Assembly (NCBI GenBank): GCA_035352955.1
Contig: DAOPYQ010000001.1
Coordinates: 165,536-229,535 of the forward strand
DNA: 64,000 bases
Source: Candidatus Omnitrophota bacterium
Lineage (GTDB): Bacteria > Omnitrophota > Omnitrophia > Omnitrophales > Aquincolibacteriaceae
Direction: 5' to 3'
The notes beneath the pieces were generated by a model that was not told the DNA's origin, made no database searches, and saw only the letters and a program-made list of their open reading frames with translations. The translations under genes were made by a program, and so were the position numbers. This document shows positions 6,001 to 64,000 of this stretch, piece by piece. The first letter of the stretch is position 1; the number at the start of each line of letters is the position of its first letter.

Positions 6001-9000
6001 ACTGTTACCTGGAAGGACCGGACGATCAACGGTGTTAAGTGGGCGGATCTTATCACCCTCCACAACCCCATGTTTCTCGAGGGCGGCCGATTGTTCCTTT
6101 GTCCTGCGGGCAGCGGAATGGGGATGCGGGTCCTGGATCCGGCGAAATTCGAAAAAAATCCTGTTTTCAGGAAATTTATCGAACGTGGAAAACTCGCGGT
6201 TAGAACTTCGATGAAGTTTATTGATGTCTTTGGTTCTCTGGCCGCTGCCGGGACGATCCGGAACGGAACCGAGCTTAGGACTGCCGCGCGATTTCTGATC
6301 GCGATCCGCCATTTTGGAGAATGGTCTGAAAAGCTGAATAATTTTATCCGGGAAGCGGCTCATTCGGAGAATTCTGGCGAAAAGTTCACGGAACTTTGGC
6401 GGGAAATGATACAAGCCGCTGCTGCGGCATCGTGGGATCGTGACCGGATCACGGTGCTTGCGAACCAGTTGATAGAGCGTCTTGAGCGGATCGAAGAACA
6501 ACAAGCAGCCCGTGAGACGCGGGGGGAGCCGCAGACCGCGCAACGCACAGTCAACGGTGCGCAACGGGGAGAGGAAGGGAAGTTGTGGTTTGAAACGGCA
6601 AAGCCGGAAGACGGTAGACGGATGATGGATGGCGTAAAGCCTGGTTTTTCGACATCCGACATTCGTCCTCCGCAATCCGTAAGCGAAGATGGCAGCCGCG
6701 CTGAATTGCGCGGGACGGCCGGTCAGGAGATCTTGGATCCGCAAAGTTTTGATTCGATCCTGGAATTTATCCGGGCCGAGCCTTCCGAGGTTGTGAGGGG
6801 CCGGCGGGCGGAAAGGATGTTCGCGGCTTTTCTGAGCGCGCATCCGAAGGAGGTTAATGAAACAAATCTCGGAAAATTATACCGCGCGATCGAGCCGATT
6901 TGCGGCGAGGCGATCGGGTACGGGATCGCGCTTTTCGAATCGCTTGCCAGGACCTCGGAGTCGGCCCGCGCGAGTTTTAGTGCCGGGAATCTCGAAATTC
7001 TGATCGACCGTTTTCTGGCGACGCCGCCCCGATCGAGTGCCCGTGCTTATTTTCAGGGCATGGTGGCTCGATTTTGGGTGGCCCATCCCGAGGTTTTTGA
7101 CAAGACCGTCGCCGGTTCTCTGATCGAAAAGATCGATCTGGCGCCCACCGAGGGGCGCGATACGTTTCTCAGGTTTTTGGAATATTTTGACCGGCAGGAC
7201 GGTAACGTCTTCGATCCGGAAACGCTCGGTTTGTTCCTCCGAAAATTCGAGAGGGATATGGTCCGGGCGCCGATTGCCAAAAGGTCTTCCATGGATATGG
7301 GTTTATTGAGTGATGTTATCGAAAAGCTTACCTCCAAGACGCAGGTTCTTGATCCCGGGCTTTTCCGGACATACACGGCTCTCGCAAGCATGACGTCCAT
7401 GCCCGGGGGTTACGGTTATGACCGGTATGCCGAAACGCTCGGGGATTTTTTTAGAAAATATTACGGTCTTCAACTCGACAAAGATGTCCTGCATGTGCTG
7501 AGCAGGAGGATCTGGGGACTGGTTTTAGGGGAAAGGACCCAGGGGAAGAAAGGCGAGTTGATCTATTCGTGTCCGTTCCTTGCTTCCTGGGAACAGAATC
7601 TGAGCGCCCTGGCGGAGATCTTTCGGCCGGTGTCCGGGCAGGACCATCTTCCGCAAACGACCGTGGACGTTCTCGAAAAGAGCCTCGTTCTGCTCAGCGA
7701 GCAGGTCGGGGCCCGTCAGACGCGGGGGGAGCCGCAAGCCGCGCAACGCACAGCCAACGGTGCGCAACGGGGAGAGGAAGGGAAGTTGTGGTTTGAAACG
7801 GCAAAGACGGAGGACGGTAGACGGATGACGGATGGCGTAAAGCCTGGTTTTTCGACATCCGCCATCCGTCATCCATTATCCTCCGCCGAAGGCGACGGCC
7901 GAGCCGAGCTGCGCGCGACGGCGGGGGAGTGGACGAAAGCGTTTGAAACGATGCGCGAATTCGGAGCGCTTCTCAAATGGAACGGGAACACCCTGGATCT
8001 TTCAGGAGTTCATTCGAAAAATCCTCTCTTGATGATCATTAATGAGGCCCGGGGCTGGGTGAAGTTGATCGATCTTAAAACGCTGCGCGAGAAGACCGCA
8101 AAGGGGCGGCCGGTTTCCGAATGGATCGGGTGGACGGCTGACGATAGAAAGCTTTCTCCGGATAATCGCTGGTTTTTCTGGCGTGACGCGAGCGGTCTCA
8201 TTCATCTTTTGGATCTTGAGCGTGGCGAAGATTTCAGGGATCCCCAAGGCCGAACGATCGAGAAGATTTCGCCTTCTTCGAAAACGATCATACGAGTCTG
8301 GTTTTCCAGTGACAGTAAAAGTCTCTTTTTTCAGGATGTCTTAGGGCGTTGTTCGATCCTGGAGCTGACGAAATCTAAAATCCCCCGCGTGACGAAAGAA
8401 AAGATCCAGAAGCTGATAGATGCCGGGATCCTCGATTGGGCGTTATCCGATGACGGGACACTGCTTGCCGTGGATCGTGTGTTTCCAGGGAGTGGAAGCG
8501 GGCTCGAACTCATCGATCTTGTCCGGGGAGAAAAGGTTCTAAATGCGGATGGAAGCCTCTGGCGGAAGAGCCTGCCGGATCGCACGTCTCTTGTAAAGTT
8601 TAAGTTTCTTCCGGGAACGCGCATTTTCTGGGCGCGTACTTACGAAGGAAATGCCCAGATCTACGATCCGTTCGGGGAAGCGGCGGTCCTTTCTCCCGCG
8701 GTTCCTCTGGAGGCCTTGATCTCTAAATGCGCCAGCGAGGTTGTTCTCTCTCCGGATAAAAAGCGGTTGTTCGTGATCAATAATCCGGGGGACGGGCAGG
8801 GGGGGATCGATTATCGTAGGAGCGAAGGTTTTTGGTATGACCTCGTGACCGGTCAAGAGGTTATGGTTAAGGGCGAGCCTTTTTCAAAAAAGCTGGGAAA
8901 AGGGTTCGTTAGGGCGACTTTTTCTCCGGATCAGAGCTCTTTGTGGATTTTGTCGTGGGGGAGGGGGGGCACTTTTGGACTTCTGGATCCGCTGACCTGG

Positions 9001-12000
9001 GAGGACCGGAAGATCAACGGTGTAGAGGTCGGTCGCTTGTTGCCGCATGACGTTCCTGAGTTTCTTGGAGAGGGGCGTGTGCTTATTCATACCAGCGGGA
9101 TCGAAAGAAGATTCCGTATACTTGTTCCCGAGAAGATCGAAGGCGACCCTGTTTTGAAGAAGGTGGTGGGGCGCGGGAAATTCGCGCCGGAGGTTTCGAT
9201 GGCAATTCTGGAGAGCCTCGGTTTTCTGACGATGGTGGGTGCGGTACAAAACGGCGCTGAACTTCAAACCGCTCTGGAGTTCCTGACCGCGATACACAAT
9301 TTTATGGAATGGTACAAGCGCTTGGGTGTCTTCATCCAGAAGTTCGATTTTTCCGAAGATCTTAGCGGAAGATTTTCGGCGCTCTGGCACGAAACGATGT
9401 TCGATGCTGCCGGGGTCGCTGGAGATCGTGACCGGATCACGGTGCTTGCGAACCGGCTGATGGATCGTTTTCAGCAGATCGAAAAACAGCAAGTGGCTCG
9501 TGAAATTCGCGGCCAGCCGCAGGACGCGCAACGTGGAACGGACACCCCACGGGGGCTGGGCAAAGAGCGCCCTGACGTGCAACGGGGAGAGGAAGGGAAG
9601 TTGTGGTTTGAAACGGCAAAGCCGGAGGCGCAGAGCGCAGAGCGCAAAGCGCAACGCACAACGAAAAACGGAGATTCAACGTTGACCGTTGCGCGTGGCA
9701 CGTCGAGCGCGCCGCAAAGCGGCGCCCGCGCCGAACTCCGGGCAAAAGAACAGAAAGAAAAGGCGCCCTTTCTGCCGTCGCTGAAATCCATTGAGAAAAA
9801 ACTTAAAAAAGATCCAGGCTACGCCACGGAAAAGAATTTCGAACCGTTTCGGAGGGTTTTGAATGGAGAGGATAAAGAATTCCAAAAAACCTTAGCCTAT
9901 ATGTGCAAGTACGCCTTTCCTGTAGCGTCGTTTTTTTTCTACTATGGGCTGGTTGGCATTGGTTATTTTCTTTTAGCAGTTTTCTTTGTTCTTTTTGGCG
10001 ATCTGACGCTTCTTAACAGCTTGGACAGAGGAGTGATGCCGTATTTACTATTTCTGACTTGGCCGAGTTTTGTTCTAGGTGGGGGAATAGCGTATTTCTT
10101 TGATGAGGTTCGAATAAATGTCCAGCGTATGGCCGCGGCATTTCGGGCCCTTTCTATTTTTTTGAAATACAATGCGTTCTTTTCGCGTCCTGAGTTTGAG
10201 ATGCTAGCTTGGGGAAGAATTATTTCTAAAAAAGTTTTGGAGCATAATGTCTGGGAACGTCTCCCCGAATCTCAAAAGCATCTTTTGCAAAAACTCGCTT
10301 TTGGAGTTTTAAATCAGATGTACCAGTGGGGGTTTTCGGAAAAGCTCGCTGATAAATTTGCGCGGGATGTTAGCGATTTTACGTCTAAATATCCCAATAG
10401 CCGCGAAGACATCATCGCTATTCTGACACAAGCCTCGCAACGATACCACGCCGGCGCAAAAGAGGCCGAAATCGTCGCGTTTGTTTCTGAAAGACTTAAA
10501 AAAATCGAGGAGCAGAAAAGAGCCCGTGAGGCGCGGGGGGAACCGCAGGACGCGCAACGCGCGACGGACAACGTACAACGATCGTCCGAAGGGAAGTTGT
10601 GGTTTGAAACGGAAAAACCGGAGGCGCAGAGCGCAAAGCGCAACGCGCAACGCACAACGAAAAACGGAGATGCAACGTTGACCGTTGCGCGTGGTACGTT
10701 GAGCGCGCCGCAAAGCGACGCCCGCGCTGAAAAGCGGGAACGGAATTTTGACTGGTTCTGGAAAATGCCGCATGGGGCGGAGAAGACCCAGACGTGGCAG
10801 CTCGTCAAAAACATTCTCGGGGTTTTAAAGAAACAAAGGACCTCGGACGGGGAAAGGGATCTGGATGCTCTAAAGGATTTTCTGGTTTCGAAGGAGTTTG
10901 TTGGTCTGGCGGCCGGTGACAGGGTGAGGCTCCTGGCGCTTTTAGGGCGGTTTGCAGGAAAAGCCGAATGGATCGCGGTTCAACACCTGCAATTTTTATT
11001 TCGCGGTGAAGTCCAGGCGATCATGGATCCTGTCGAGAGGGCAAAGCTTTTTGAAGTGGTTGATGTGTTCGCCGGAAATTTGCAGCAGTTCGGATGGGAA
11101 TTCGCGTCCTGCAACTGGTTCCTTTATCAAATGAGGCTGTTTTCCGGTAAAAAAGATCCTCTGGTACAAGCGCGGGTGTGGGAGATCGCAAAAACGATCG
11201 CGGCCCGAAGAGAGGGTGACAGCCGGTGGGCTATTTCCGCGTTCGGCCTTTTTCTTAATTCGGAGAAATTTTCAAAGATCCTGGATCCTGGCGAGCGGCT
11301 AAAGGTATTGGAGATCGCCGCGGCGATCGCGCACTACTCTAAGGATATGACCGAAAGCGCGCAGGACGAGGACGGTGAATCGTATCTTCGGTGGGCCGGA
11401 TTTGACGGATTGCAGTCCTTGCTGGTCGCCCCGGGGTTTGTGAAGATCGAAGATCCTGCCTTGAGGATGAGCGCTCTCGAGATCGCAAAGATCCTTGCGA
11501 CGCGGCCCCAGTGGAACGAGGGCGGATTTTTGGGGGAATTCCTGCAATGTCTCGAAGAAGCCTCCGGCTCCCCGGAGTTTCCCGGCGTGTGGAAGGATTT
11601 TTCGAGGGATTTTGGCCAGGCCGTGACTGAAGAAGCGAAACGGGCCGCGGCAGAAACCGCTTATCAGACCCTCGTGCATCTTGCGATCCAGGCCAAAGCC
11701 CGTGAAGTGCGCGGCCAGGCGCAAATTGCGCAACGCGCAACGCACACCCCGCGGGGGTTGGACACAGAGCGCCCTGACGCACAACGAGAAGTGGAAGGGA
11801 AGTTGTGGTTTGAAACGGCAAAACCGGAGGACGGATCCCACGGGACTGCTTCGCCGAAACGGATGACGGATGGCGTAAAGCCCGGTTTTTCGAAATCCGC
11901 CATCCGCCATCCATTATTCTCCGCCGAAGGCGGCGCCCGAGCTGAATTACGCGCGACGGAAGCCGTGCCCGCGAAAACGTGGCGCGAGAAGATCGCGTCG

Positions 12001-13926
12001 AAGGTTCGGGAGACATTGATCGAACGGTGCACTTTTGATCGGCTTATCCGGAAGATCGAAAAAGATCCACGTAAGGCGACCCGCACCCGGCTCAAGCCGG
12101 TCCTCCGTGAACTTGGAGATCCGGGCTGGCTGTCCCAACGTTTGCTCGGCATCCATGACGTTTTTGCGCTTGTCTTCAACTTTCCGTTCTTCGGGATAGC
12201 GTATCTCCTGTCAGTCATCAATTTTGTGGCGGCCTTGCTTTTCGTTCCAAAGTTACTGATCGGTCTGGTTTTGCTCGGTATCGACCGGCTCCTGGAGCTC
12301 GGCGGCAAGGTCTTTTCGTCGGTGGCGTTTTTCCATTCCAAATATTCCGACTGGCTGGAGGTTCTCAATGATGCGGAAGACGGCGACACAGTCGATGGAT
12401 TTTTTACCTGGCTTGAGGCCCTTTGTAACCGGAGAACGACCGATACAGGTTGGATCGTGGAAATTGCCCGGAGACGCTCCATTTCCGCGCTCAAAGCCTT
12501 GAAAGTGTTCGTTCACGCCAATCCCGCGCTGGATCCGGAAGAATTCATGGGAGTTTTGGCGGAGATTTTGGCCCAGCCCGATCTGACCCGCGATCGTCGC
12601 CAGGTTCTTTGCGAGGTTTTGGTCGATTTCTACCGCATCGATGTTCCGCCGGAGGTGCTCGAGGAGATCCTTCTGTCGGCGCAGTCCACTTGGCGGGGAC
12701 AGTATCGTTCGTGGACGCCAATGGAAAAAACGAGGAACATGACAACGCTTCTGGATTTCCTGCGGCGGTTCGGGAGAGATATTCCGGGATTTGAGGCAAA
12801 GCCCTTAGACCAAAGGCTTCTCGTGATCGAGGCGTTCAAAAAAGATTTTGAACAGCTGATGGCGCAGTTCGGCGCGCGGCAAACGCGCGGGGAACCACAA
12901 ACCGTGCAACGCGCAACGGATAACGTACAACGATCGACGGAAGGGAAGTTATGGCTTGAAACGGAAAAACCGGAGGACGGAAAACGGATGACGGATGGAG
13001 TAAAACCTGGTTTTTCGCCATCCGCCATCCGCCATCCATTATCCTCCGCCGAAGGCGGCGACCGCGCCGAACTGCGCATCGTGACGGCTGAGCAGTCAGG
13101 GATCGCGGAGGAAGCGGTATCGGTCATTCTGACCCCCGGCAGGGTCCGTATTGAAAAACTCGGGAAATTGGCGGAGTCGATCGAACGAACGGTCCATGCG
13201 ATGACGCTCGACCGGTTTGCGGAGGCTTTGCGCGCGGCGGCGGTGAAGCGCCTTTCGATGATCGGGAGAAATGCGCCGCTTTTTTCAGCCCCGAAAGTGG
13301 ACGCGACGCTCGCGGAGAAAGCCGTCCGTTATTTTATGGATCAATTCAAGAAGGTGGATTCCAAGGGAGGTTTTGCCGTGGCGTTCGATTCCGAGGCGGA
13401 CCGGGCCCTTGAAGAGGCGCTCTTCCAAATGAGAGACCGGATCGGGCTGGCGATCTTTCCCAAAGAGTTGGTCAAACGGCTCAGCCCCAAGACACTTCGC
13501 GGCGTTCCTTATAAGGTTGTCCATGGTTTTCGGAGGATGAGACTGCCGCTTTCGGTGGAGAACAGCGGCGCGGTACCCGTGATAGGTGGCAAGGCGCGGG
13601 TTTCCCGAGAGGAAGACGGGGAGATCTTCAGCGTTCTTATGGAGGCGTCCGATGTGGAAGGAGAACCGTTCCTTGAAGTGGTGGAGAAGGTCGTCCAGAT
13701 CCTGAGCGGGCTTGTGGCTGCCGGGCAGGTCAAAAAAGCGGGTGAGTTGAAAGATCTTCAAAAGGCGGAGGAGATCAAGGCGGCTCTTCTCAAAAAGCTT
13801 TTCGAGGACCAGGGCGCTTCAGGGGTCATTGCTATCCGGGGCGGCAAGATCTTTGTGGACCGGGCGCTTCTGAGGGATTTTCTGACCCAGTACCTGGCGG
13901 CGAAGGTAATTGGGCAGGCGGCATAA
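25..13926 (+). CDS. Giant multidomain protein of 4633 aa, 5' end possibly off-window. It carries helical repeats, two beta-propeller-like blocks, two multi-TM blocks and ten conserved linker modules
   Basis: One stop-free frame of 13.9 kb. Frame 1 has no stop between position 1 and the ATG at 25. The antisense frames are broken into short ORFs. The product contains recognisable blade-like motifs (SPDNRWFF, SDDGTLAAV, SPDKKRLFVIN) and two hydrophobic helix clusters. No named family is recognised. Confidence 0.8.
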   Translation: MPIAVGWVVPQMTALLNTETLRRVSPETRERFWEYLFQREVLGKPIHPTNHGPALRAFLLSDGVKALTVEELEAMFGMFLFEYVKTPFNKNPGIRVRVPVSLPVFYFAEKLYASPQWKSMTDPSARLAMIRLVNSDPFEFGVVTPTAGAFRPGMRATWGGTVDWTVPALFEKTFAVLRHAAQELDGSKDPGSFEQIFGRSRQKMKQILEQVNARLERGEAQPDAGSGPQTPKPDSEGKLWATAPEAQSAERKAQRTTKNGDSTFTVARGASNADGVRRAELRTQAGLFSEEQTWFNTLSFKNPGEKQELFDLMLSFLRHGDFVYENRYGPDAGDVEYIRERGFSLLKELWDSPGFQRLQTAEERRSVLGSLKNQLFQTDSSTFASPVSLPFFHAFLSEQALGKMTEPQDRQKALMFFARFSESLARESDGFLALLEGRGNPQIWNSPEKEKLWAMIQKIIVADGKRYPDFFPSKAFSALQDVLGGEGFRRLTEPAEREKVWKILSTIPGYAGWEPEEGLGMFSKLINGPGFARITDPSERMELFPMFFELLNMLKKTRSQYFSNGNVISLFGELLGGNGFAGKAGAADRKAVLEIARLLLMRQEAGAFEMFRKFLDVVDATGGSQEFSEVLADFLKRSESADGDAVKTLLAEEAVQRLVLPAEQVNARLTRGEVQAVPGFRPPVSGEKEGKLWFGTAKPEDGKRMTDGVKPGFSPSDILHPSSKGDGRLKTKGFSTSDIRSPQSVSKGGERAEVRAAGKTSEFAPLRPVDLGRYEWFRQIAGPARKKEVTEIVQSVHAAIRQYISVREQEPALQVFEKMLGNEMFEKGLNAGERILALEAAQKILSNSGAHENRAFRTWILLIDSREFAGLVYPGERRRVCLIAGEIPQYAKHNSLFTLEGFWDLLSSGSTEKLGRAERFWMLETARAIIKNVEINRSAILSEYRKLLESPGFVQPLDAVGEQGLLASHLAPAEQLKILQIVQTIPAVAKEHTPEFLGELRSFLASEGFTQITAPVEREAALGIVRRVLKYVKSDFGRAIELVWAILGSEEFRNLSDPDVRLSFLEIVDRIFQWAGVERMNDLWSLKESLAAAKSSDFTRILKEFSEKTQGVTGAMARARTAQEVFEAMLRMAPQVQARESRGEPQDVQRVANGAQRGVEGKLWFGTAKPEDGKRMTDGVKPGFSPSDILHPSSKGDGRLKTKDFSTSDIRHPQSVNEDGRRAELREEQLTDMELNWFNSLTFRNGEERLALLEALETLVRQSGYSYGSFSWGNPSWIEGMSGSSTDPDEINVPILDILKSFWGSPGFAVLSEPKERIRSLRIVKTILTFVGMADSGDALNRFAGILDSRGFQSVKDPDLREALFTAVETLSGETRGPLHRVLELMERSSFEALEKRVKLTLIPFFSVMVFNEIPLSVQYPFFKEKFEKFFPAFADLAGPSRRRLIEDRKEFVRQFFASPAISEQVSPVDLSLVFCSPASGEDFFRRFCEILSRIPTGISGSDLAPWVQEAVRMFDRIRSQLSARESRGEPQDVQRTANGAQRAVEGKLWFEKAKPEDGRRMTDGDKAGSSPSAIRSPQSVNEDGSRAERKAQRTTKNGDSTLTVARGTSNAPQSGSRAALNPVDLVRLRQNPGGSVRAELRATAAEWQEAYEAVNEFGALLKWKGDYADLSGAHGDRPLLMVPNNRERRIDLIDLKTLREKTIHGRPVSEWTGRAVNDQKLSPDNRWFFGREVNAISHLVDLENGADFRDAGGRTITEIVDSRYDAYVWFSGDSSMLFVLQGPLQVLELKKPDHPRASVEKIREAFGNDVNNMAFSDDGTLAAVQYSYDSRIELVDLVRGEKVLGPDGKPWKKKATKYTQLEPFKFLPGTHIFWTRGYEGNAVAHDPYGEADKLSPARPLSELIPEYADHLQISPDKKRLFVINCPGRKIGLSDDTENEGFWYDLKTGKEILIGGEPFSKKLGKGFTRAELSRDESFLWVFRSMEDAQLLDTVTWKDRTINGVKWADLITLHNPMFLEGGRLFLCPAGSGMGMRVLDPAKFEKNPVFRKFIERGKLAVRTSMKFIDVFGSLAAAGTIRNGTELRTAARFLIAIRHFGEWSEKLNNFIREAAHSENSGEKFTELWREMIQAAAAASWDRDRITVLANQLIERLERIEEQQAARETRGEPQTAQRTVNGAQRGEEGKLWFETAKPEDGRRMMDGVKPGFSTSDIRPPQSVSEDGSRAELRGTAGQEILDPQSFDSILEFIRAEPSEVVRGRRAERMFAAFLSAHPKEVNETNLGKLYRAIEPICGEAIGYGIALFESLARTSESARASFSAGNLEILIDRFLATPPRSSARAYFQGMVARFWVAHPEVFDKTVAGSLIEKIDLAPTEGRDTFLRFLEYFDRQDGNVFDPETLGLFLRKFERDMVRAPIAKRSSMDMGLLSDVIEKLTSKTQVLDPGLFRTYTALASMTSMPGGYGYDRYAETLGDFFRKYYGLQLDKDVLHVLSRRIWGLVLGERTQGKKGELIYSCPFLASWEQNLSALAEIFRPVSGQDHLPQTTVDVLEKSLVLLSEQVGARQTRGEPQAAQRTANGAQRGEEGKLWFETAKTEDGRRMTDGVKPGFSTSAIRHPLSSAEGDGRAELRATAGEWTKAFETMREFGALLKWNGNTLDLSGVHSKNPLLMIINEARGWVKLIDLKTLREKTAKGRPVSEWIGWTADDRKLSPDNRWFFWRDASGLIHLLDLERGEDFRDPQGRTIEKISPSSKTIIRVWFSSDSKSLFFQDVLGRCSILELTKSKIPRVTKEKIQKLIDAGILDWALSDDGTLLAVDRVFPGSGSGLELIDLVRGEKVLNADGSLWRKSLPDRTSLVKFKFLPGTRIFWARTYEGNAQIYDPFGEAAVLSPAVPLEALISKCASEVVLSPDKKRLFVINNPGDGQGGIDYRRSEGFWYDLVTGQEVMVKGEPFSKKLGKGFVRATFSPDQSSLWILSWGRGGTFGLLDPLTWEDRKINGVEVGRLLPHDVPEFLGEGRVLIHTSGIERRFRILVPEKIEGDPVLKKVVGRGKFAPEVSMAILESLGFLTMVGAVQNGAELQTALEFLTAIHNFMEWYKRLGVFIQKFDFSEDLSGRFSALWHETMFDAAGVAGDRDRITVLANRLMDRFQQIEKQQVAREIRGQPQDAQRGTDTPRGLGKERPDVQRGEEGKLWFETAKPEAQSAERKAQRTTKNGDSTLTVARGTSSAPQSGARAELRAKEQKEKAPFLPSLKSIEKKLKKDPGYATEKNFEPFRRVLNGEDKEFQKTLAYMCKYAFPVASFFFYYGLVGIGYFLLAVFFVLFGDLTLLNSLDRGVMPYLLFLTWPSFVLGGGIAYFFDEVRINVQRMAAAFRALSIFLKYNAFFSRPEFEMLAWGRIISKKVLEHNVWERLPESQKHLLQKLAFGVLNQMYQWGFSEKLADKFARDVSDFTSKYPNSREDIIAILTQASQRYHAGAKEAEIVAFVSERLKKIEEQKRAREARGEPQDAQRATDNVQRSSEGKLWFETEKPEAQSAKRNAQRTTKNGDATLTVARGTLSAPQSDARAEKRERNFDWFWKMPHGAEKTQTWQLVKNILGVLKKQRTSDGERDLDALKDFLVSKEFVGLAAGDRVRLLALLGRFAGKAEWIAVQHLQFLFRGEVQAIMDPVERAKLFEVVDVFAGNLQQFGWEFASCNWFLYQMRLFSGKKDPLVQARVWEIAKTIAARREGDSRWAISAFGLFLNSEKFSKILDPGERLKVLEIAAAIAHYSKDMTESAQDEDGESYLRWAGFDGLQSLLVAPGFVKIEDPALRMSALEIAKILATRPQWNEGGFLGEFLQCLEEASGSPEFPGVWKDFSRDFGQAVTEEAKRAAAETAYQTLVHLAIQAKAREVRGQAQIAQRATHTPRGLDTERPDAQREVEGKLWFETAKPEDGSHGTASPKRMTDGVKPGFSKSAIRHPLFSAEGGARAELRATEAVPAKTWREKIASKVRETLIERCTFDRLIRKIEKDPRKATRTRLKPVLRELGDPGWLSQRLLGIHDVFALVFNFPFFGIAYLLSVINFVAALLFVPKLLIGLVLLGIDRLLELGGKVFSSVAFFHSKYSDWLEVLNDAEDGDTVDGFFTWLEALCNRRTTDTGWIVEIARRRSISALKALKVFVHANPALDPEEFMGVLAEILAQPDLTRDRRQVLCEVLVDFYRIDVPPEVLEEILLSAQSTWRGQYRSWTPMEKTRNMTTLLDFLRRFGRDIPGFEAKPLDQRLLVIEAFKKDFEQLMAQFGARQTRGEPQTVQRATDNVQRSTEGKLWLETEKPEDGKRMTDGVKPGFSPSAIRHPLSSAEGGDRAELRIVTAEQSGIAEEAVSVILTPGRVRIEKLGKLAESIERTVHAMTLDRFAEALRAAAVKRLSMIGRNAPLFSAPKVDATLAEKAVRYFMDQFKKVDSKGGFAVAFDSEADRALEEALFQMRDRIGLAIFPKELVKRLSPKTLRGVPYKVVHGFRRMRLPLSVENSGAVPVIGGKARVSREEDGEIFSVLMEASDVEGEPFLEVVEKVVQILSGLVAAGQVKKAGELKDLQKAEEIKAALLKKLFEDQGASGVIAIRGGKIFVDRALLRDFLTQYLAAKVIGQAA
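655..885 (+). repeat. Linker module 1, type B (..EGKLW..AQSAERKAQRTTKNGDSTFTVARG..RAELR), with GCGCAACG..CGTTGCGCG hairpin
   Basis: Near-identical nucleotide block shared with modules 4, 7 and 8 and with the intergenic elements near 17.6 and 18.7 kb. Confidence 0.85.
2017..2297 (+). repeat. Linker module 2, type A (EGKLWFGTAKPEDGKRMTDGVKPGFSPSDI..), with internal tandem duplication of the PGFSxSDIxxP unit
   Basis: Near-identical to module 3 at the DNA level. Contains the hairpin acggatgacggatggcg..cgccatccgacatcc. Confidence 0.85.
3433..3705 (+). repeat. Linker module 3, type A with internal duplication
   Basis: RGEPQDVQRVANGAQRGVEGKLWFGTAKPEDGKRMTDGVKPGFSPS.. Hairpin stem of 14/15 bp at about 3547-3595. 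Confidence 0.85.
4592..4890 (+). repeat. Linker module 4, composite type A plus type B
   Basis: RGEPQDVQRTANGAQRAVEGKLWFEKAKPEDGRRMTDG.. followed by AERKAQRTTKNGDSTLTVARG. The type B hairpin cgcaacgcacaacg..cgttgaccgttgcg lies at about 4786-4850. Confidence 0.85.
6506..6712 (+). repeat. Linker module 5, type A
   Basis: RGEPQTAQRTVNGAQRGEEGKLWFETAKPEDGRRMMDGVKPGFSTSDIRPPQSVSEDGSRAELR. Confidence 0.85.
7710..7915 (+). repeat. Linker module 6, type A
   Basis: RGEPQAAQRTANGAQRGEEGKLWFETAKTEDGRRMTDGVKPGFSTSAIRHP..RAELR. The hairpin has a perfect 13-bp stem (ggatgacggatgg/ccatccgtcatcc). Confidence 0.85.
9494..9742 (+). repeat. Linker module 7, type B with extra insert (GTDTPRGLGKERPDVQR)
   Basis: ..EGKLWFETAKPEAQSAERKAQRTTKNGDSTLTVARGTSSAPQSGARAELR. 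Confidence 0.85.
10520..10738 (+). repeat. Linker module 8, type B
   Basis: RGEPQDAQRATDNVQRSSEGKLWFETEKPEAQSAKRNAQRTTKNGDATLTVARG.. Confidence 0.85.
11698..11955 (+). repeat. Linker module 9, type A with insert
   Basis: ..EVEGKLWFETAKPEDGSHGTASPKRMTDGVKPGFSKSAIRHP..RAELR. Confidence 0.85.
12870..13078 (+). repeat. Linker module 10, type A
   Basis: RGEPQTVQRATDNVQRSTEGKLWLETEKPEDGKRMTDGVKPGFSPSAIRHP..RAELR. Confidence 0.85.
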
Positions 13927-13977: not shown

Positions 13978-14005
13978 TTGACACGTCCTTCCTTATCAAT
14001 ATAAT
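13978..14005 (+). promoter_or_regulatory. Near-consensus sigma70 promoter, TTGACA-16nt-TATAAT
   Basis: ttgaca at 13978-13983 and tataat at 14000-14005, about 60 nt upstream of the CDS at 14067. Confidence 0.6.
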
Positions 14006-15269: not shown

Positions 15270-16955
15270 ATGAAGCTTACAGGCGCACAGATCCTTATCA
15301 AGTGTCTTGAAAAAGAAGGTGTCCGGCACGTGTTCGGGCTCCCGGGCGGGGTCATTTTGCCCACCTACGATGTGCTGTACGATTCAAAACTTAAGCTTAT
15401 CCTGACCAAGCACGAGCAGGGAGCGACGCACATGGCGGACGGTTATGCGCGCGCGACGGGAAAACCCGGAGTTTGCATCGTGACTTCCGGTCCGGCGGCG
15501 ACGAATACCGTCACAGGGCTGGCGACGGCGCATATGGATTGCATCCCGATGGTTTGCATTACGGGGCAGGTTGTGACGCACGCGATCGGTTCCGACGCGT
15601 TCCAGGAAGTGGATATTGTCGGGATCACGCGGCCGATCACGAAACACAATTTTCTGATCAAAGACGTTAAAGAGATCGCGAGGATCGTGCGCGAAGCGTT
15701 TTATATCGCCACGACCGGGAAGCCCGGACCGGTGCTTATTGATTTCCCGGTCGACGTAAGCCGCGCGATGGCCGAATTTGTATGGCCTAAGGAAGTCTCG
15801 ATCCGTAGTTATCAGCCCGGGATCGAACATCCGGAAGCGGCGGCTCAGATCGGGCTTGCGGCGGAACTGATCCACGCGAGCAAGAAGCCGGTGCTTTATG
15901 TCGGCGGCGGCGCGATCATCTCCGGCGCGGAAAAAGAAGTTCTCGCGTTCGTGGAAAAGACCGGGATCCCGGTCACGACGACGATCCTCGGGCTGGGGGT
16001 GTTCCCCGAAACGCATCCTTTGTCATTACATATGCTCGGGATGCACGGGACGCATTACGCGAATTATTCGGTCCAGAACGCCGACGTATTGATCGGAATG
16101 GGCGCGCGTTTTGATGACCGTGTGACGGGCAATATTGCGAAGTTCGCGCCGCACGCCAAGATCATTCATATCGACATCGATCCGGCGGCGATCTCGAAAA
16201 CCGTGCGCGTTCATGTGCCGGTGGTTTGTGACGTGAAGGCGGCCCTTGCGAAGTTGAGCCCGCTGGTCGGGAACAAACGCCCGGAGATACAGCCCTGGCT
16301 TGATCAGATCGCGGAATGGAAAAAGAAGTTTCCGATGAAATATAAAACGTCGGGTTCGAAGATCCATCCGGCCTATGTGATCGAGCAGATCGGAGAGGTG
16401 ACTCGGCATCAGGCGGTCATGGTGACGGGTGTGGGCCAGCACCAGATGTGGACGGCGCAATGGTACAAGTTCATCCGGCCGCGAACGATGTTGACTTCAG
16501 GCGGTCTTGGGACGATGGGCTATGGTCTGCCCGCGGCGATCGGCGCTCAACTCGGCATGCCGGAAGAGACGGTGGTTTGCATCGACGGGGACGGATCGTT
16601 CCAGATGACGATGCCGGAGCTTGCGACCGCGGCATTCAATAAAGTCCCGATCAAGGTTTTTCTTCTCGATAACGGTTACTATGGCATGGTCCGCCAGTGG
16701 CAGCAGCTTTTTTACAAACAGCGCTATTCGGGTTCCGTGATCGGGCCGACGAATCCTGATTTCATGAAGCTTGTCGGCGCGTACGGGATCCTGGGGATCC
16801 GGATCAAAGAGAAAAAAGAAGTCGTGCCGGCGATCAAGAAGGCCCTCGCGCACCGCGGGCCTGTCGTGGTCCAGTGTTTGGTTGCCCGCGAAGAGAATGT
16901 GTATCCTATGGTCGCGGCCGGTAACGCGCTCGATCAGATTATGGACATGGCCTAA
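15270..16955 (+). CDS. ilvB: Acetolactate synthase large subunit
   Basis: TPP-enzyme motifs such as GGVILPTYD, FQEVDIVGITRPITKH and GTMGYGLPAAIGA. 561 aa. Confidence 0.95.
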   Translation: MKLTGAQILIKCLEKEGVRHVFGLPGGVILPTYDVLYDSKLKLILTKHEQGATHMADGYARATGKPGVCIVTSGPAATNTVTGLATAHMDCIPMVCITGQVVTHAIGSDAFQEVDIVGITRPITKHNFLIKDVKEIARIVREAFYIATTGKPGPVLIDFPVDVSRAMAEFVWPKEVSIRSYQPGIEHPEAAAQIGLAAELIHASKKPVLYVGGGAIISGAEKEVLAFVEKTGIPVTTTILGLGVFPETHPLSLHMLGMHGTHYANYSVQNADVLIGMGARFDDRVTGNIAKFAPHAKIIHIDIDPAAISKTVRVHVPVVCDVKAALAKLSPLVGNKRPEIQPWLDQIAEWKKKFPMKYKTSGSKIHPAYVIEQIGEVTRHQAVMVTGVGQHQMWTAQWYKFIRPRTMLTSGGLGTMGYGLPAAIGAQLGMPEETVVCIDGDGSFQMTMPELATAAFNKVPIKVFLLDNGYYGMVRQWQQLFYKQRYSGSVIGPTNPDFMKLVGAYGILGIRIKEKKEVVPAIKKALAHRGPVVVQCLVAREENVYPMVAAGNALDQIMDMA

Positions 16956-17011
16956 AAGACAGCTGCCGGGGGCGGGGGTCCGCCGCAGGCTCAAAAAGTG
17001 AGGAAAAATTC

Positions 17012-17563
17012 ATGAAACATACGATCGCCGTTCTGGTGGAAAATCATTTTGGTGTTTTGGCGCGCGTGGCCGGGCTTTTTTCCGCGCGCGGGTTCAATAT
17101 CGACAGTCTCGCGGTCGGTGAAACGCAGGATCCTGAGATCTCCCGCATGACCGTGATCGCTAAGGGGGACGATCGTGTCGTCGATCAGATCATGAAACAG
17201 CTGAACAAGCTGGTGGACGTGATCAGCGTTAAAGATCTCACGGACGGGGATGTGATCGATCGTGAGCTCGTGCTGATCAAGATCGGCGCGAACGCGACGA
17301 ACCGCAATGACATCATGCATGTCGTGAACACGTTCCGGGCGAAGATCGTGGATGTCAGTCCCGAGTCGATGACGATCGAAGTGACCGGGAGCGAGGGGAA
17401 GATCGACGCGATGCTCGAGCTGTTGAGGCCCTTTGATCTCCGGGAAGTGGTCAGGACCGGACAGATTGCGATGGCGCGCCGTACCGAGATCGCGATGCCC
17501 TCTAAAAAATGCGCCAGAAAACCGGCGGTCTCGAAAACAAAGAAAGCTTCAAAGAAGAAATAA
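17012..17563 (+). CDS. ilvN: Acetolactate synthase small (regulatory) subunit with Lys-rich C-terminal tail
   Basis: ACT domain MKHTIAVLVENHFGVLARVAGLFSARGFNIDSLAVG. Immediately downstream of ilvB. Confidence 0.9.
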   Translation: MKHTIAVLVENHFGVLARVAGLFSARGFNIDSLAVGETQDPEISRMTVIAKGDDRVVDQIMKQLNKLVDVISVKDLTDGDVIDRELVLIKIGANATNRNDIMHVVNTFRAKIVDVSPESMTIEVTGSEGKIDAMLELLRPFDLREVVRTGQIAMARRTEIAMPSKKCARKPAVSKTKKASKKK

Positions 17564-17570
17564 TAAAAAT

Positions 17571-17645
17571 CAGCTCAACGCGCAAGGCGCGACGCTCAAC
17601 GAAGAAATTTTACGTTGCGCGTTGACCGTTGTGCGTTGCGCGAAA
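17571..17645. repeat. Intergenic copy of the palindromic GCGCAACG/CGTTGCGCG element (ilvN-ilvC spacer)
   Basis: caacgcgcaaggcgcgacgctcaacgaagaaattttacgttgcgcgttgaccgttgtgcgttgcgcg. Shares cgcaacgcacaacgg (here in reverse complement) and cgttgaccgttg with the type B modules of the giant ORF. Confidence 0.75.
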
Positions 17646-17662
17646 AATGAAAGGAAAAGAAA

Positions 17663-18661
17663 ATGGCGGTCAAAATTTATTACGATAAAGATGCAGATCT
17701 GAATTTGCTCAAGGGCAAGAAGGTTGCTATTATCGGTTACGGGATTCAAGGCCGCGGGCAGGGGCTCAATCTCCGCGACTCCGGTGTGAATGTGCTTGTT
17801 TCCGAGCTCCAAGGGACGCCGAATTATGAGCAGGCCGTCAAGGATGGTTTTAAGCCCGTGCCGGCGGCGGAAGCGGCGCAGCAGGCGGATATTGTTCAGA
17901 TCCTGACCCAGGACCATCTCCAGGCAGAGATCTATGAAAAATTCATCGCTCCGAACATGAAGGCCGGGAAATCGCTCTGTTTCTCCCACGGTTTCAACAT
18001 CCATTTCGGGTACATCAAGCCCGCGCCGGAGATCGATGTGTTCATGGTCGCGCCGAAGGGCCCGGGGTCGCTCGTCCGCTCCCAATTTACGGAAGGCGGC
18101 GGCGTACCGTGTCTCGTGGCGGTCCAGCAGAACCCGAGCGGGAAAGCGCTCCAGATCGGTTTGGCGTATGCCAAGGCGATCGGCGGAACGCGCGCTGGTG
18201 TCATTGAAACCACGTTCAAGGAAGAGACCGAGACGGATCTTTTCGGCGAACAAGCGGTCCTTTGCGGCGGCCTGAGCGATTTGATTACCGCGGGGTTTGA
18301 TACGCTGGTGGAAGCCGGATACCAGCCGGAGATGGCGTACTTTGAATGTCTCCATGAAGTGAAGCTGATCGTGGACGCGATGTTCGTGCACGGGATCGCC
18401 GGGATGTATCGCCGCGTGTCCGATACCGCCGAATACGGTGGTTATAGCCGCGGGCCGCGCCTGATCACGAAAGAGACCCGCAAAGAAATGAAAAAGATTC
18501 TCGGAGAGGTCCAGTCCGGGAAGTTCGCGAAGGAATGGATGGAAGAGAACCGGCAGGGCCGCCCGAATTTCAAGAAGTTCCGCGAAAAATGCGACAAGCA
18601 TTTGATAGAGGAAGTCGGCGCCCGTTTGCGCAAGATGATGGAATTCATTAACAAAAAGTAA
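17663..18661 (+). CDS. ilvC: Ketol-acid reductoisomerase (class I)
   Basis: [41 protein letters not shown]. 332 aa. Good RBS aaaggaaaag upstream. Confidence 0.95.
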
Positions 18662-18664
18662 ACC

Positions 18665-18732
18665 GCTCGACGCGCAGAGCGCAACGATCAACGAGGCGAT
18701 TTTACGTTATGCGTTGACTGTTGCGCGTTGCA
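18665..18732. repeat. Intergenic copy of the palindromic element (ilvC-leuA spacer)
   Basis: gacgcgcagagcgcaacgatcaacgaggcgattttacgttatgcgttgactgttgcgcgttgcacc. The gcgcagagcgcaacg and gttgac(c/t)gttgcgcg segments are identical to those in the giant-ORF modules. Confidence 0.75.
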
Positions 18733-18747
18733 CCGGGTCCAAAGGCT

Positions 18748-20295
18748 ATGAAAAAACCGAGAAAGATATTCATATTCGATACCACGCTCCGCGACGGTGA
18801 ACAATCGCCGGGAGCGTCGCTTACGCCGGACGAGAAGTTGAAGGTCGCCCGGCAGCTCGAGCGGCTGAATGTTGATGTCATTGAGGCCGGATTCCCCGCG
18901 TCTTCCGCGGGGGAGATGAAGGCGGTTCGGATGATCTCGGAAACCGTGCGTAGACCGGTGATCTGCGGCCTGTCGCGGATGATCCCGTGCGATATCGATG
19001 CGTGCCGCGAGGCTCTGGAGAGCGCGGCGCGTAAGCGGCTTCATGTTTTTCTCGCTACGTCGCAGATTCACCGCGAGTTCAAGCTTAAGAAGGACAAGAA
19101 AGAGATCCTCGCGATGGCGGTGCGGAGCATCCGATCCGCTACAAAAGATTTCAAACAGATCGAGTTTTCACCGGAGGACGCTTCCCGGACCGAGCGCGCT
19201 TTCCTGACCCAAATCGTGAGCGCCGCGATCGATGCCGGGGCTACTTCGATCAATATTCCGGACACGGTCGGTTATGCGATCCCGGAAGAATTCGGCAACC
19301 TCATCCGGTTTTTGGTCAAAAAGAACCCGCAGCTCGGGAAGAAAGTGGTGTTGTCCGTTCATTGCCACAACGACCTGGGGCTTGCGAGCGCGAATTCTAT
19401 GGCGGCGGTGCTCGCGGGCGCCAATCAGATCGAATGCACGGTGAACGGGATCGGGGAGCGCGCGGGGAACGCCTCGCTTGAGGAACTCGTGATGGCGATC
19501 GATACGCGCAAGGATTTCGTGGATTGTTATACGGATATCAAACAATCCGAAATCACGAAAACATCGCGCCTGGTATCTCATTTGACCGGCATGGTTGTTC
19601 AACCGAACAAAGCCATCGTAGGTCGGAATGCATTCTGGCACGCCTCCGGGATCCATCAGGACGGCGTTCTCAAGAAACGGCAGACGTACGAGATTATGGA
19701 CCCCAAGCGAGTCGGACTTTCCGGGAATCACCTCATGCTCGGAAAACTTTCCGGCAAGCACGCGTTCGCCGTGAGGGTGAGGAAACTCGGCTTCTGTCTG
19801 GCCGAAAAAGAACTCGACCAGGCGTTTTCCCGCTTTAAGACGCTGGCGGATAAGAAAAAATATATCTTTGACGAGGACCTTGAAGCGATCCTGCAGGATG
19901 AGATCGCGAAGATCCATGAAACGTGGAAGCTTGCGTCGATGAAAGTCGTTTCCGAAACCGGGAAGCAGCCTTTTGCCGAGATGCGTCTGTCCTACGAGGG
20001 CGAGACGAAGGAAGCTTCGTCGACGGGCGACGGGCCGGTCGATGCCTGCTACAAAGCGATCGAAAAGATCGTGCATTCGCAGGCGCAACTTGTGCACTAT
20101 GGGCTGCAGTCCGTGACGGGCGGCAAGGATGCTTTGGGCGAAGTGGTGGTGAAACTCGAGATCGATGGCAAGGAAGTGACCGGTCGCGGGACGAGCACCG
20201 ACATCATCGAGGCCAGCGTGCGCGCATATCTTTTTGCCCTGAACAAGGTTTCGTCGAACCCTCACCGGGCTTCGAGCCCTTCGTCTGCGGTGTGA
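18748..20295 (+). CDS. leuA: 2-isopropylmalate synthase
   Basis: IFDTTLRDGEQSPGASLT, HCHNDLGLA and a LeuA-type C-terminal regulatory domain. An alternative TTG start at 18721 lies inside the repeat element. Confidence 0.9.
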   Translation: MKKPRKIFIFDTTLRDGEQSPGASLTPDEKLKVARQLERLNVDVIEAGFPASSAGEMKAVRMISETVRRPVICGLSRMIPCDIDACREALESAARKRLHVFLATSQIHREFKLKKDKKEILAMAVRSIRSATKDFKQIEFSPEDASRTERAFLTQIVSAAIDAGATSINIPDTVGYAIPEEFGNLIRFLVKKNPQLGKKVVLSVHCHNDLGLASANSMAAVLAGANQIECTVNGIGERAGNASLEELVMAIDTRKDFVDCYTDIKQSEITKTSRLVSHLTGMVVQPNKAIVGRNAFWHASGIHQDGVLKKRQTYEIMDPKRVGLSGNHLMLGKLSGKHAFAVRVRKLGFCLAEKELDQAFSRFKTLADKKKYIFDEDLEAILQDEIAKIHETWKLASMKVVSETGKQPFAEMRLSYEGETKEASSTGDGPVDACYKAIEKIVHSQAQLVHYGLQSVTGGKDALGEVVVKLEIDGKEVTGRGTSTDIIEASVRAYLFALNKVSSNPHRASSPSSAV

Positions 20296-29912: not shown

Positions 29913-30793
29913 GCACGGCTGAACGGGTCGAAAGCTTTCTCGGGTTTCTGACGACCGAGAAAGGCGCTTCCGACCATACGGTCAAAAACTACGGGATCGA
30001 TCTCCGGGAATTCAAAAAATTCCTAGCGGAAAAAGATCTGAAGGAATTGACGTACCTGGATATCCGCGCCTTTCTTGCATTCTTGAAAACACGCGAATAC
30101 AGTAAGAGTTCCATCTCCCGGAAGCTGGCGTGCCTCCGTTCGTTCTTCAAATATCTCGCTCGCGAGAATATCCTGACACAGAATCCCGCGGCCGGGATCG
30201 CAACGCCGAAGAAGGAAAAGCGGCTCCCCTGTTTTTTGAATCCCGATGAGATCACCAAGCTTCTTGAGGCGCCCTCCCAACACTGCTGGGAAGAAAAACG
30301 GGACAAGTCGATCCTAGAAATGCTCTACAGCTCCGGCATCCGCGTCAGCGAACTGGTCGGGCTGAACCATGACGATCTTGATTTTTTCGGAGGACTCGTG
30401 CGGGTCCGCGGCAAAGGGAAAAAGGAACGTATTGTGCCAGTGGGACAGGTGGCGCTTCGTTGTCTCAAGGATTATTTGGATCACAAAGCGCCGAAGGAGA
30501 TCCTGAATGCGGTCAAGAAACCCCTTTTTGTGAGCCGGCTCGGAGGCCGTCTGACGGATCGTAGCATTCGGCGGATGATCCTGAAGTACGTGAAGCGGAC
30601 CGGTCTCGGCAAAGAGGTTTCGCCGCACACGTTGCGGCACTCTTTTGCGACGCATATGCTGGATCGCGGTGCGGACCTCCGGAGTGTTCAGGAGCTTCTC
30701 GGGCACGCGAATCTTTCGACGACGCAGATCTACACGCATGTGACGACGCAGAGGCTGAAAGACGCCTACGCAACGGCGCATCCGAGGGCGTGA
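29909..30793 (+). CDS. Tyrosine site-specific recombinase XerC/XerD family
   Basis: RHSFATHMLDRGADLRSVQELLGHANLSTTQIYTHV. Overlaps the topA stop (ATGA). Confidence 0.9.
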   Translation: MSTAERVESFLGFLTTEKGASDHTVKNYGIDLREFKKFLAEKDLKELTYLDIRAFLAFLKTREYSKSSISRKLACLRSFFKYLARENILTQNPAAGIATPKKEKRLPCFLNPDEITKLLEAPSQHCWEEKRDKSILEMLYSSGIRVSELVGLNHDDLDFFGGLVRVRGKGKKERIVPVGQVALRCLKDYLDHKAPKEILNAVKKPLFVSRLGGRLTDRSIRRMILKYVKRTGLGKEVSPHTLRHSFATHMLDRGADLRSVQELLGHANLSTTQIYTHVTTQRLKDAYATAHPRA

Positions 30794-30804
30794 GGAAAAC
30801 TCAA

Positions 30805-30820
30805 ATTTCAAATTTGAAAT
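30805..30820. promoter_or_regulatory. Perfect 16-bp palindrome atttcaaatttgaaat upstream of waaA
   Basis: Seen directly in the sequence. Candidate operator. Confidence 0.3.
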
Positions 30821-30836
30821 CGAAGGCAACTCAATC

Positions 30837-63891: not shown

Positions 63892-63903
63892 CTAAAACTG
63901 AAA

Positions 63904-63950
63904 AGGGGTAGGGTCTGTTCTCGGAAGAAAAGACCCTGCCCCTTTTTTAT
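63904..63950 (+). terminator. Rho-independent terminator
   Basis: ggggtagggtct..loop..agaccctgcccc then tttttt. Confidence 0.85.
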
Positions 63951-64000
63951 TTGAGGATTCGGGTGAGGAAGAAGCTTGGGAAAACGCCCATGGCGATGAC

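Follow-up and report, generated by a model that had tools for sequence, protein, structure and literature searches.

The branched-chain amino-acid operon of a Candidatus Omnitrophota bacterium (assembly GCA_035352955.1, contig DAOPYQ010000001.1) carries an imperfect palindrome in two of its intercistronic spacers, between ilvN and ilvC and between ilvC and leuA, and related strings recur in a neighboring giant open reading frame (ORF) of 4633 codons. This raises the question of whether the palindromes are signals of the operon or copies of an element that is independent of it. We analyzed the stretch of 64 kb (positions 165,536 to 229,535 of the contig, forward strand) around the operon, which is called the window throughout. 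The reading that we favor, with a probability of about 0.75, is that the spacer elements are lineage-specific copies of a repeat that is dispersed and non-coding, forms an imperfect palindrome of about 70 nt with a modular heptamer structure, and is also found in frame in the linkers of giant ORFs. Such a repeat would spread as selfish DNA by way of its hairpin and would act in mRNA at most like a repetitive extragenic palindrome (REP).

The palindrome of the ilv spacers and of the giant ORF

A preliminary description of the window had proposed that both spacers contain the same palindrome of about 70 nt, and the alignment bears this out. Positions 17568-17639 and 18660-18731 form a direct repeat of 72 nt with 81% identity, and palindromic arms are found in both copies (17579-17601/17620-17642, 83% complementary; 18674-18693/18712-18731, 80% complementary; 18 nt between the arms in each case). 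In the window the ilvN-ilvC spacer measures 99 nt and the ilvC-leuA spacer 86 nt. Copy 1 begins 9 nt past the ilvN stop codon and ends 20 nt ahead of the ilvC ATG, while copy 2 begins 3 nt past the ilvC stop codon and ends 14 nt ahead of the leuA ATG at 18748. The loops of both end in ATTTTA (Table 1). Folded as RNA, copy 1 reaches -36.9 kcal/mol (z = -3.9) and copy 2 -34.5 kcal/mol (z = -2.9, both against dinucleotide shuffles), and in both the downstream purine-rich ribosome-binding site stays unpaired. The short strings singled out earlier behaved largely as described. An exact attttacgtt is present only at the two spacer sites, gttgacYgttgYgcgttgc recurs at 20 places with up to 3 mismatches (0.03 expected; 16 in the giant ORF and 4 in spacer arms), and GCGCAACG occurs 25 times in the window versus 4.2 times expected. 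However, gcgcagagcgcaacg, which had been assigned to both spacers, is present only in the second, the first reading gcgcaaggcgcgacg.

When the spacer copies were aligned pairwise by BLAST with the type B hairpins of the giant ORF, only pieces of 13-24 nt were returned, and kinship was therefore tested with an external profile. An initial metagenome pattern, GCGCARNGCGCAACGNNCAACG, was too permissive: it retrieved 117 loci, mostly plain (GCGCAAC)n microsatellites, about 16 of them with the hairpin architecture. The profile was built from 16 external copies on unrelated metagenome contigs and included no window sequence at all. In the window it found exactly six full-length matches, namely the two ilv spacers and four type B segments (41.6-51.3 bits, E 3e-12 to 3e-15, model positions about 4-77), and it also picked three half copies within giant-ORF linkers. 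No match was obtained in ten block-shuffled windows. The type B segments, which had been named as further sites of the element, are thus matched over their full length, and the similarity is not confined to a shared octamer.

The four type B segments are mutually 95-97% identical and are built as GCGCAGA GCGCAAA GCGCAAC GCACAAC G, a 16-nt loop and CGTTGAC CGTTGCG CGTGGTA CGTCGAA. The copy at 4783-4857 directly follows a type A hairpin, with GGCAGY-CGCGC on both sides, and the copy at 10630-10705 has one left-arm heptamer more than that at 4783. Type A hairpins have the same architecture as the CAACG family with another heptamer core (NNACGGA/TCCGNNN), and would encode PEDGRRMTDGVKPGFSxSxIRHP. 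A hairpin is found at 10/10 module junctions of the giant ORF. The ten linkers share a common frame (...ARExRGEPQ..QR..EGKLWFETAKPE, hairpin, ..RAELR), whose hairpin slot holds type A, type B or, in linker 4, both; AQSAERKAQRTTK is an example of the predicted linker-spanning peptides. These linkers are near-identical and join unrelated modules, and their core is far better kept at the DNA level than the paralogous modules, of which there are two pairs with 50% and 26% identity. The modules look protein-like, with a recurring xxGFxxLxxPxER helical repeat and membrane segments. For the giant ORF as a whole, Pfam gave no match, and no homologue was found among 5.8 billion proteins (E up to 1e-5). 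An exhaustive HMMER search with one linker gave a single weak match (E 1e-4), an unrelated GPDGNLWFTE propeller repeat, which was dropped as evidence.

The preliminary description had further suggested that the element exists in two forms, as intergenic hairpins that are not translated and as inserts that are translated in frame. In-frame copies are indeed present in two additional giant ORFs of metagenome loci (L099 and L178; L numbers are our labels for fetched metagenome and related loci), translation being read in all cases from the sequence alone. The L099 ORF exceeds 3570 aa, has domains of the PAS, HisKA, HATPase and receiver types, and contains two CAACG-family copies in frame; that of L178, with 3552 aa, a receiver domain and two units of UDP-glucose dehydrogenase, contains one in frame, with another just downstream. 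Both were chosen through the presence of the element and hence do not serve for estimates of frequency. The three host ORFs have no mutual similarity, and the peptides encoded by the in-frame copies differ among them. Of the reading frames through intergenic copies, 37-52% contain no stop codon, which makes the survival of copies in frame plausible. A detector of lag-7 periodicity found 25 arrays in the giant ORF of the window and 3 in spacers; the roughly 48 kb of ordinary coding sequence in the window contained none, nor did shuffles. Apart from those in the giant ORF and the ilv spacers, there is a single lag-7 array, a heptamer-periodic palindrome, aggaaaactcaaatttcaaatttgaaatcgaa, at 30793-30824, which fills the spacer directly after the stop codon of a XerC/D-like recombinase gene (29909-30793).

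External copies and the heptamer units

Full-length copies were found on at least 14 other contigs, with three on L146, two each on L183, L148, L178, L099, L126 and L124, and at least five at unrelated sites of SESH01070063.1. All carriers are metagenome contigs, and gene contexts on these loci rest on our own ORF calls. The external copies are 75-86% identical over 60-79 nt to the spacer and type B copies; their flanks are unrelated, so that only the element is common. Some are nearer to type B than to the spacers, such as that of L127 (82% over 77 nt to 10638-10710). At least one carrier, L148, belongs to the same Omnitrophota clade, as its S1 protein is 80-87% identical to Candidatus Omnitrophota/Omnitrophica proteins including that of ADurb.Bin277. 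The earlier proposal of one dispersed family, likened to REPs or to MITEs (transposable elements of the miniature inverted-repeat type), is upheld by these copies. Of 20 intergenic copies, about 15 have their first base 0-17 nt behind a stop codon and lie between genes that are co-directional or convergent, and one is located between divergent genes; the neighbors include aroF/tyrA, fabF/lpxA, thyA and a menaquinone gene. A scan of viral contigs for the hairpin pattern gave no match.

A full-length element consists of about four tandem heptamers (C-D-CAACG), an A/T-rich loop of about 10-20 nt in most copies, and about four inverted heptamers (CGTTG-NN). Common terminal motifs are tcaGCTCAACG...TTGCGCGaaa, and the loop is A-rich, followed by a T-run before CGTTG. 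The heptamer logo, derived from 190 units, starts with C (73%) and D (G 48, T 30, A 19%), continues with CAACG at 91-99% and varies most at positions 1-2; the main variants are CGCAACG (65 units), CTCAACG (28), CACAACG (26) and GTCAACG (17). In an alignment of 20 copies the core columns of the stem form Watson-Crick pairs in 90-100% of copies. At heptamer position 2, however, Watson-Crick pairs occur in only 8 of 78 mirrored units, versus 28.3 +/- 4.1 expected by permutation, the commonest juxtapositions being G.A (21), T.C (19), A.C (10) and G.T (9). Overall stem pairing in the 20 copies (77.8%) lies below that of all 500 column shuffles (80.9 +/- 0.8). The stems show no covariation; instead, complementarity is lower than chance. 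The hairpin is a chain of invariant 5-bp helices parted by mismatches that are kept at every seventh position.

A nearly invariant core flanked by two freely varying positions could also mean that the arrays are binding sites, in which a sequence-specific DNA- or RNA-binding protein recognizes CAACG every 7 nt along the two arms and which are kept for regulation, for instance of the neighboring cistrons at the post-transcriptional level, and not as selfish DNA. At the variable position complementarity is avoided and not selected, so perfect pairing is not the conserved trait, and several relatives without the element have native CAACG motifs just upstream of the ilvC ribosome-binding site. We nevertheless regard binding sites as an unlikely explanation. 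At the corresponding sites close relatives, described below, either lack the element or have families whose cores are quite different, and one reader protein therefore cannot explain the class. In addition, the neighboring genes are functionally unrelated (ilv, aro, fabF/lpxA, thyA, giant ORFs), and copies within ORFs fit poorly with an operator-like role.

Two other kinds of repeat were considered. CRISPR was ruled out, as there is no regular repeat-spacer array. The attC sites of integrons have 7-bp RYYYAAC/GTTRRRY cores, a consensus to which the GCTCAAC/GTTGAGC variants conform. They were ruled out as well: each arm of the elements has four units, they lie within conserved operons and ORFs, and they adjoin neither an integrase nor a cassette array. 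Apart from the hairpins, plain (GCGCAAC)n arrays and mixed arrays (GCGGAAC, CCGGAAC) are common in metagenome contigs from many habitats (among L081-L197: L090, L100, L113, L168, L193). Such microsatellite-type arrays often lie at gene boundaries, for instance just upstream of an S19-like start in L168.

Turnover in related genomes and the host operon

The ilv spacers were compared with those of nine related, fully syntenic Omnitrophota loci with IlvC proteins 82-92% identical. The ilvN-ilvC spacer is 28-42 nt long in seven relatives, 59 nt in L203, 62 nt in L198 and 99 nt only in the window. At the site of copy 1, L203 has a mini hairpin of one to two units (CGCGCAGCG-gatttaaa-CGTTGCGCG), and L001, L205 and L206 have solitary CAACG motifs; the L198 spacer holds an unrelated small hairpin. 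The ilvC-leuA spacer is 1-24 nt long in six relatives, 72 nt in L210 and about 100-119 nt in L198 and L203, where it contains a different hairpin family with a GGGACT/AGTCCC core. Between ilvB and ilvN, an AGTGAT/ATCACT heptamer hairpin is found in L198 and L208, and yet another family in L205. The profile found no full CAACG-family copy in any of the nine loci. Because the spacers of the relatives are short or filled by other families, none with a full CAACG copy, the ilv spacers are hot spots that are empty or hold different hairpin families in close relatives. A perfect palindrome unrelated to the element, cgtaggggcaattcatgaattgcccctacg, is located in the ilvC-leuA spacer (7000-7045) of L002 (Omnitrophica RIFCSPLOWO2_12_FULL_44_17).

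The spacers of L148 that carry the CAACG element were compared with their orthologues in L211 and L212, whose S1 proteins are 96% and 87% identical to that of L148, and other families were found at the same sites (Table 1). The core of the window's type A hairpins, which fills one of these spacers in L212, is also in frame in the L212 giant ORF (L212 16163-16243). Further, AGTGAT/ATCACT, GGGACT/AGTCCC and GTAAGGC/GCCGTAC families were observed in close relatives, in spacers after stop codons and in giant ORFs. Since relatives carry families with other cores in the same kinds of places, the 7-nt modular hairpin is a class of elements and not a single family. The giant ORFs of L211 and L212, fetched for an unrelated reason, contain arrays of several families, and that of L214 contains none. 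The three lie next to lpxA and are orthologous over the N-terminal 600 aa or so (50-54% identity) and unrelated beyond. In L211 and L212 the arrays are located in indel-rich segments that do not align and at the point where homology is lost, the same position being occupied by different families.

The L203 mini hairpin and the solitary motifs at the copy 1 site raise the alternative of an origin in place, in which slippage expands a short CAACG seed to heptamer arrays and an inverted duplication is added; the similarity would then be convergent and no transposition would be involved. The frequent plain microsatellites, the varying unit number among type B copies that are otherwise 95-97% identical, and the single architecture shared by several unrelated cores are in line with such an origin. 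As a general account it seems improbable, as full-length copies on unrelated contigs agree in unit number, loop character and terminal motifs as well as in sequence (75-86% identity), the distribution in close relatives is patchy and all-or-none, and single contigs such as SESH01070063.1 carry many unrelated sites (at least five). The mini hairpin and the common microsatellites do speak for some contribution of slippage in place.

The host operon (ORF392-ilvBNC-leuA-aro; Table 1) belongs to the Omnitrophota background of these comparisons: the window IlvC shares 90% identity with the protein of a Candidatus Omnitrophica metagenome-assembled genome (MAG), 89% with that of the MAG ADurb.Bin277 and 92% with those of the closest metagenome relatives. 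A promoter scan found a perfect sigma-70-type consensus (TTGACA-16-TATAAT) at 13978-14005, between the stop codon of the giant ORF and ORF392, which likely marks the start of the operon. Downstream, a TTG at 18721 had been put forward as an alternative start of leuA. It is in the leuA frame and inside copy 2, but was rejected on comparison with orthologues: ATG 18748 is preferred because it yields a LeuA of 515 aa, as in the relatives (514-515 aa).

Their place within a branched-chain amino-acid operon and their strong hairpins might suggest that the elements form a conserved amino-acid-responsive leader or attenuator, or that they are intrinsic terminators; partial termination had been considered in the preliminary description. 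Both ideas are very improbable. The element is missing from most orthologous spacers, so that no conserved leader is kept there, and the same family lies between unrelated genes elsewhere. Rfam gave nothing relevant in the whole window at the gathering threshold or in the 1.2-kb region at E up to 10. With these two results the elements do not qualify as an amino-acid leader, riboswitch or T-box. Neither has a G+C-rich stem directly followed by a T-run, as an intrinsic terminator would: the letters after the stems are gaaaaatgaaagg and ccgggtccaaagg, and no terminator-like site was found on the + strand at the elements, which leaves the idea of a partial terminator unsupported. The elements are also internal to an operon whose sole consensus promoter is that at 13978-14005. 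Being internal, and with no terminator, the ilv element is almost certainly co-transcribed in the operon mRNA, as judged from the gene arrangement. Elsewhere in the window, a hairpin at 63892-63955 (30-nt arms, then a T-run), after an ABC-F-type ATPase gene, resembles an ordinary intrinsic terminator. Canonical terminators thus appear to exist in the source genome, unlike the ilv elements in look.

Table 1. Coordinates of the elements, genes and orthologous sites. Positions refer to the window unless a locus label is given; E values and bit scores are those of the external-copy profile.
Feature	Position	Strand	Details
Copy 1, CAACG family	17573-17642	+	ilvN-ilvC spacer; 64.8 bits, E 2e-19
Copy 1, left arm	17574-17601		CTCAACG CGCAAGG CGCGACG CTCAACG
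Copy 1, loop	17602-17612		aagaaatttta, 11 nt
Copy 1, right arm	17613-17640		CGTTGCG CGTTGAC CGTTGTG CGTTGCG
Copy 2, CAACG family	18665-18733	+	ilvC-leuA spacer; 48.6 bits, E 2e-14
Copy 2, left arm	18666-18693		CTCGACG CGCAGAG CGCAACG ATCAACG
Copy 2, loop	18694-18704		aggcgatttta, 11 nt
Copy 2, right arm	18705-18732		CGTTATG CGTTGAC TGTTGCG CGTTGCA
Type B, linker 1	767-840	+	full-length CAACG-family copy, in frame; predicted peptide AQSAERKAQRTTKNGDSTFTVARGAS; 41.6 bits
Type B, linker 4	4783-4857	+	full length, in frame; 44.9 bits
Type B, linker 7	9635-9709	+	full length, in frame; 44.9 bits
Type B, linker 8	10630-10705	+	full length, in frame; 51.3 bits
Half element, linker 8	10551-10585	+	one-arm CAACG heptamer array; 20.9 bits
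Half copy, giant-ORF linker	12902-12936		19.1 bits
Half copy, giant-ORF linker	11725-11746		9.7 bits
Type A hairpins	2121-2193, 3534-3606, 7809-7881, 11858-11915, 12970-13046	+	all in frame in the giant ORF
Giant ORF, 4633 aa	25-13926	+	modules of helical-repeat, propeller-like and membrane type; hairpins in ten linkers, each about 90 aa
ORF392, 392 aa	14067-15245	+	precedes ilvB
Host operon genes ilvB-ilvN-ilvC-leuA	15270-20295	+	part of ORF392-ilvBNC-leuA-aro
ilvB	15270-16955	+	Pfam; synteny in relatives
ilvN	17012-17563	+	Pfam; synteny in relatives
ilvC	17663-18661	+	Pfam; synteny in relatives
leuA	18748-20295	+	Pfam; synteny in relatives
Giant ORFs next to lpxA, starts	L211 5852-; L212 14427-; L214 14204-
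fabF-lpxA spacer			L148, CAACG element; L211, GTAAGGC/GCCGTAC hairpin; L212, lone CGTTG arm and AAGATCA family
aroF-tyrA spacer			L148, CAACG element; L212, GGATGA/CATCCG hairpin (core of window type A)
Sites of other families	L198 3869-3951, 15322-15424, 5560-5662; L208 ilvB-ilvN spacer; L203 10999-11119; L211 4425-4536, 7193-7227, 7677-7723

A putative selfish hairpin element and the giant genes

The distribution described above would be explained by lineage-specific insertion or expansion of the element between cistrons of the ORF392-ilvBNC-leuA-aro operon. There it follows the preceding stop codon by 3-9 nt and leaves the downstream ribosome-binding site free. In giant ORFs it occupies permissive linker positions and would be read through as a disordered-looking peptide. 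The element may spread as selfish DNA via a single-stranded hairpin intermediate recognized by a postulated enzyme. Slippage of heptamers would change the number of units and aid this spread, and the kept mismatches may shield the palindrome from deletion or define the structure that is recognized. In the ilv-leu mRNA, a stem of about 28 bp would be at most a REP-like barrier to 3'-to-5' exonucleases or a site for a double-strand RNase, and would uncouple the stability or translation of neighboring cistrons. It could also interfere with ribosomes terminating 3-9 nt upstream; REPs of E. coli likewise lie close to stop codons. Nothing supports a role of the ilv elements in amino-acid sensing or termination.

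Among known repeats, the CAACG element comes close to several. REPs are defined by a GTAG or CGTC tetranucleotide conserved at one end, outside a stem-loop with a stem of 5-13 bp and a loop of 2-20 nt (PMC3733652). Their usual place is 3' of coding regions, where the adjoining genes are co-directional or convergent (PMC3733652). For REPs, bacterial interspersed mosaic elements (BIMEs) or REP doublets forming hairpins (REPINs), a cognate REP-associated tyrosine transposase (RAYT; an IS200/IS605-type Y1 transposase) is expected in the genome, flanked by the repeats. Like these, the CAACG elements are short, dispersed imperfect palindromes, mostly just 3' of coding regions, patchy in related genomes, with several families per clade, some intragenic copies and plausible RNA hairpins. 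They differ in their arms of about 28 nt, made of four 7-nt modules with periodic mismatches around a loop of 10-20 nt, and in varying by swaps of heptamer variants and not by scattered substitutions. Rickettsia palindromic elements (RPEs) occur both between genes and in frame in protein-coding genes, where they add a peptide segment (PMC10969869), and carry a CGTC end (PMC3733652). The CAACG family is likewise intergenic and, as far as reading frames tell, in frame (four full copies in the window giant ORF, three in the L099 and L178 ORFs). RPEs, however, are about 150 bp long, have a conserved peptide per family and invade ordinary metabolic genes, whereas the CAACG element is about 70 nt long, heptamer-modular and from another phylum, encodes peptides that differ between host ORFs with no conserved tag and, in the data at hand, was seen only in giant ORFs and spacers and in no ordinary gene.

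Bacterial MITEs (Correia/NEMIS, ERIC, BOX, RUP) are small and non-autonomous, with presence/absence polymorphism, co-transcription and in-frame fusions (PMC10969869). The CAACG elements share with them terminal inverted repeats (ilv arms 80-83% complementary, 77.8% pairing over 20 copies) and presence or absence at orthologous sites (the ilv spacers in nine relatives; fabF-lpxA and aroF-tyrA in L148, L211 and L212). Unlike MITEs, they consist almost solely of the inverted arms, which are internally repetitive, and have no known parent insertion sequence. Heptamers are also the units of cyanobacterial short tandemly repeated repetitive (STRR) sequences. TAACTGA heptanucleotide repeats of Beggiatoaceae, Cyanobacteria and Bacteroidetes form intergenic direct tandem arrays of 2-6 units, patchily spread and mostly just upstream of start codons (PMC4679880). 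The 7-nt unit, the intergenic tandem arrays and the patchy spread are common to both of these and to the CAACG elements. In the latter, by contrast, direct arrays are paired with inverted ones to give a hairpin, which lies just after stop codons and inside ORFs. The CAACG element is a variant of the REP-, MITE- and RPE-like palindromic repeats, new for Omnitrophota.

Several observations weigh against the reading as a selfish, at most REP-like repeat. The name REP fits by position and patchiness but not by the tag, as GTAG or CGTC (or their complements) lies within about 10 nt of the ends in only 3 of 21 copies, none of them an ilv copy. No RAYT or other transposase was found among the approximately 45 genes of the window, where the sole recombinase, XerC/D-like, is 11 kb away. 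The flanks of the copies contain no consistent direct repeat that would indicate a target-site duplication; copy 1 is flanked by AAAAAT, and the empty sites in relatives are too diverged for a comparison in this respect. Copies differ mainly in the heptamer variant at each slot with the core constant, a pattern that looks more like constraint or shuffling of units than like neutral decay of transposed copies. Sense RNA folds better than antisense in only 11 of 28 copies; with no strand bias, nothing points specifically to an RNA-level role, and the palindrome belongs to the DNA and not demonstrably to the RNA. Finally, copy counts cover the 64-kb window and metagenome contigs and are not genome-wide.

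Proteobacteria and Rickettsia have well-studied small palindromic repeats; none had been described for Omnitrophota. The heptamer strings were not found in the searchable literature, and the two published studies of Omnitrophota giant genes make no mention of hairpins, palindromes or heptamers. Three traits of the element are unusual: its modular arms, whose 7-nt units have an invariant 5-nt core and retain a mismatch once in every seven positions; its fast turnover, in which families are swapped at the same sites after stop codons while housekeeping proteins remain 82-96% identical; and its presence in spacers and in frame in giant ORFs but in no ordinary gene. Concrete sequences can now be searched for in 176 complete Omnitrophota genomes.

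We tentatively raise the possibility, which we hold to be rather doubtful, that heptamer hairpins are material for building and remodeling the giant genes of Omnitrophota. Stop-free intercistronic elements could become translated linkers that join genes once separate or modules that were shuffled, and their shared sequence could provide recombination junctions for module swaps. This idea arises because a hairpin is found at all ten module junctions of the giant ORF in the window, because the linkers are far more alike in DNA than the paralogous modules they join, because the arrays in the comparison of L211, L212 and L214 sit in non-alignable segments and where homology ends, and because ordinary genes are without arrays. 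The restricted location of the elements links selfish-looking DNA to the question of how a gene can be assembled and tolerated at a length of thousands to tens of thousands of codons.

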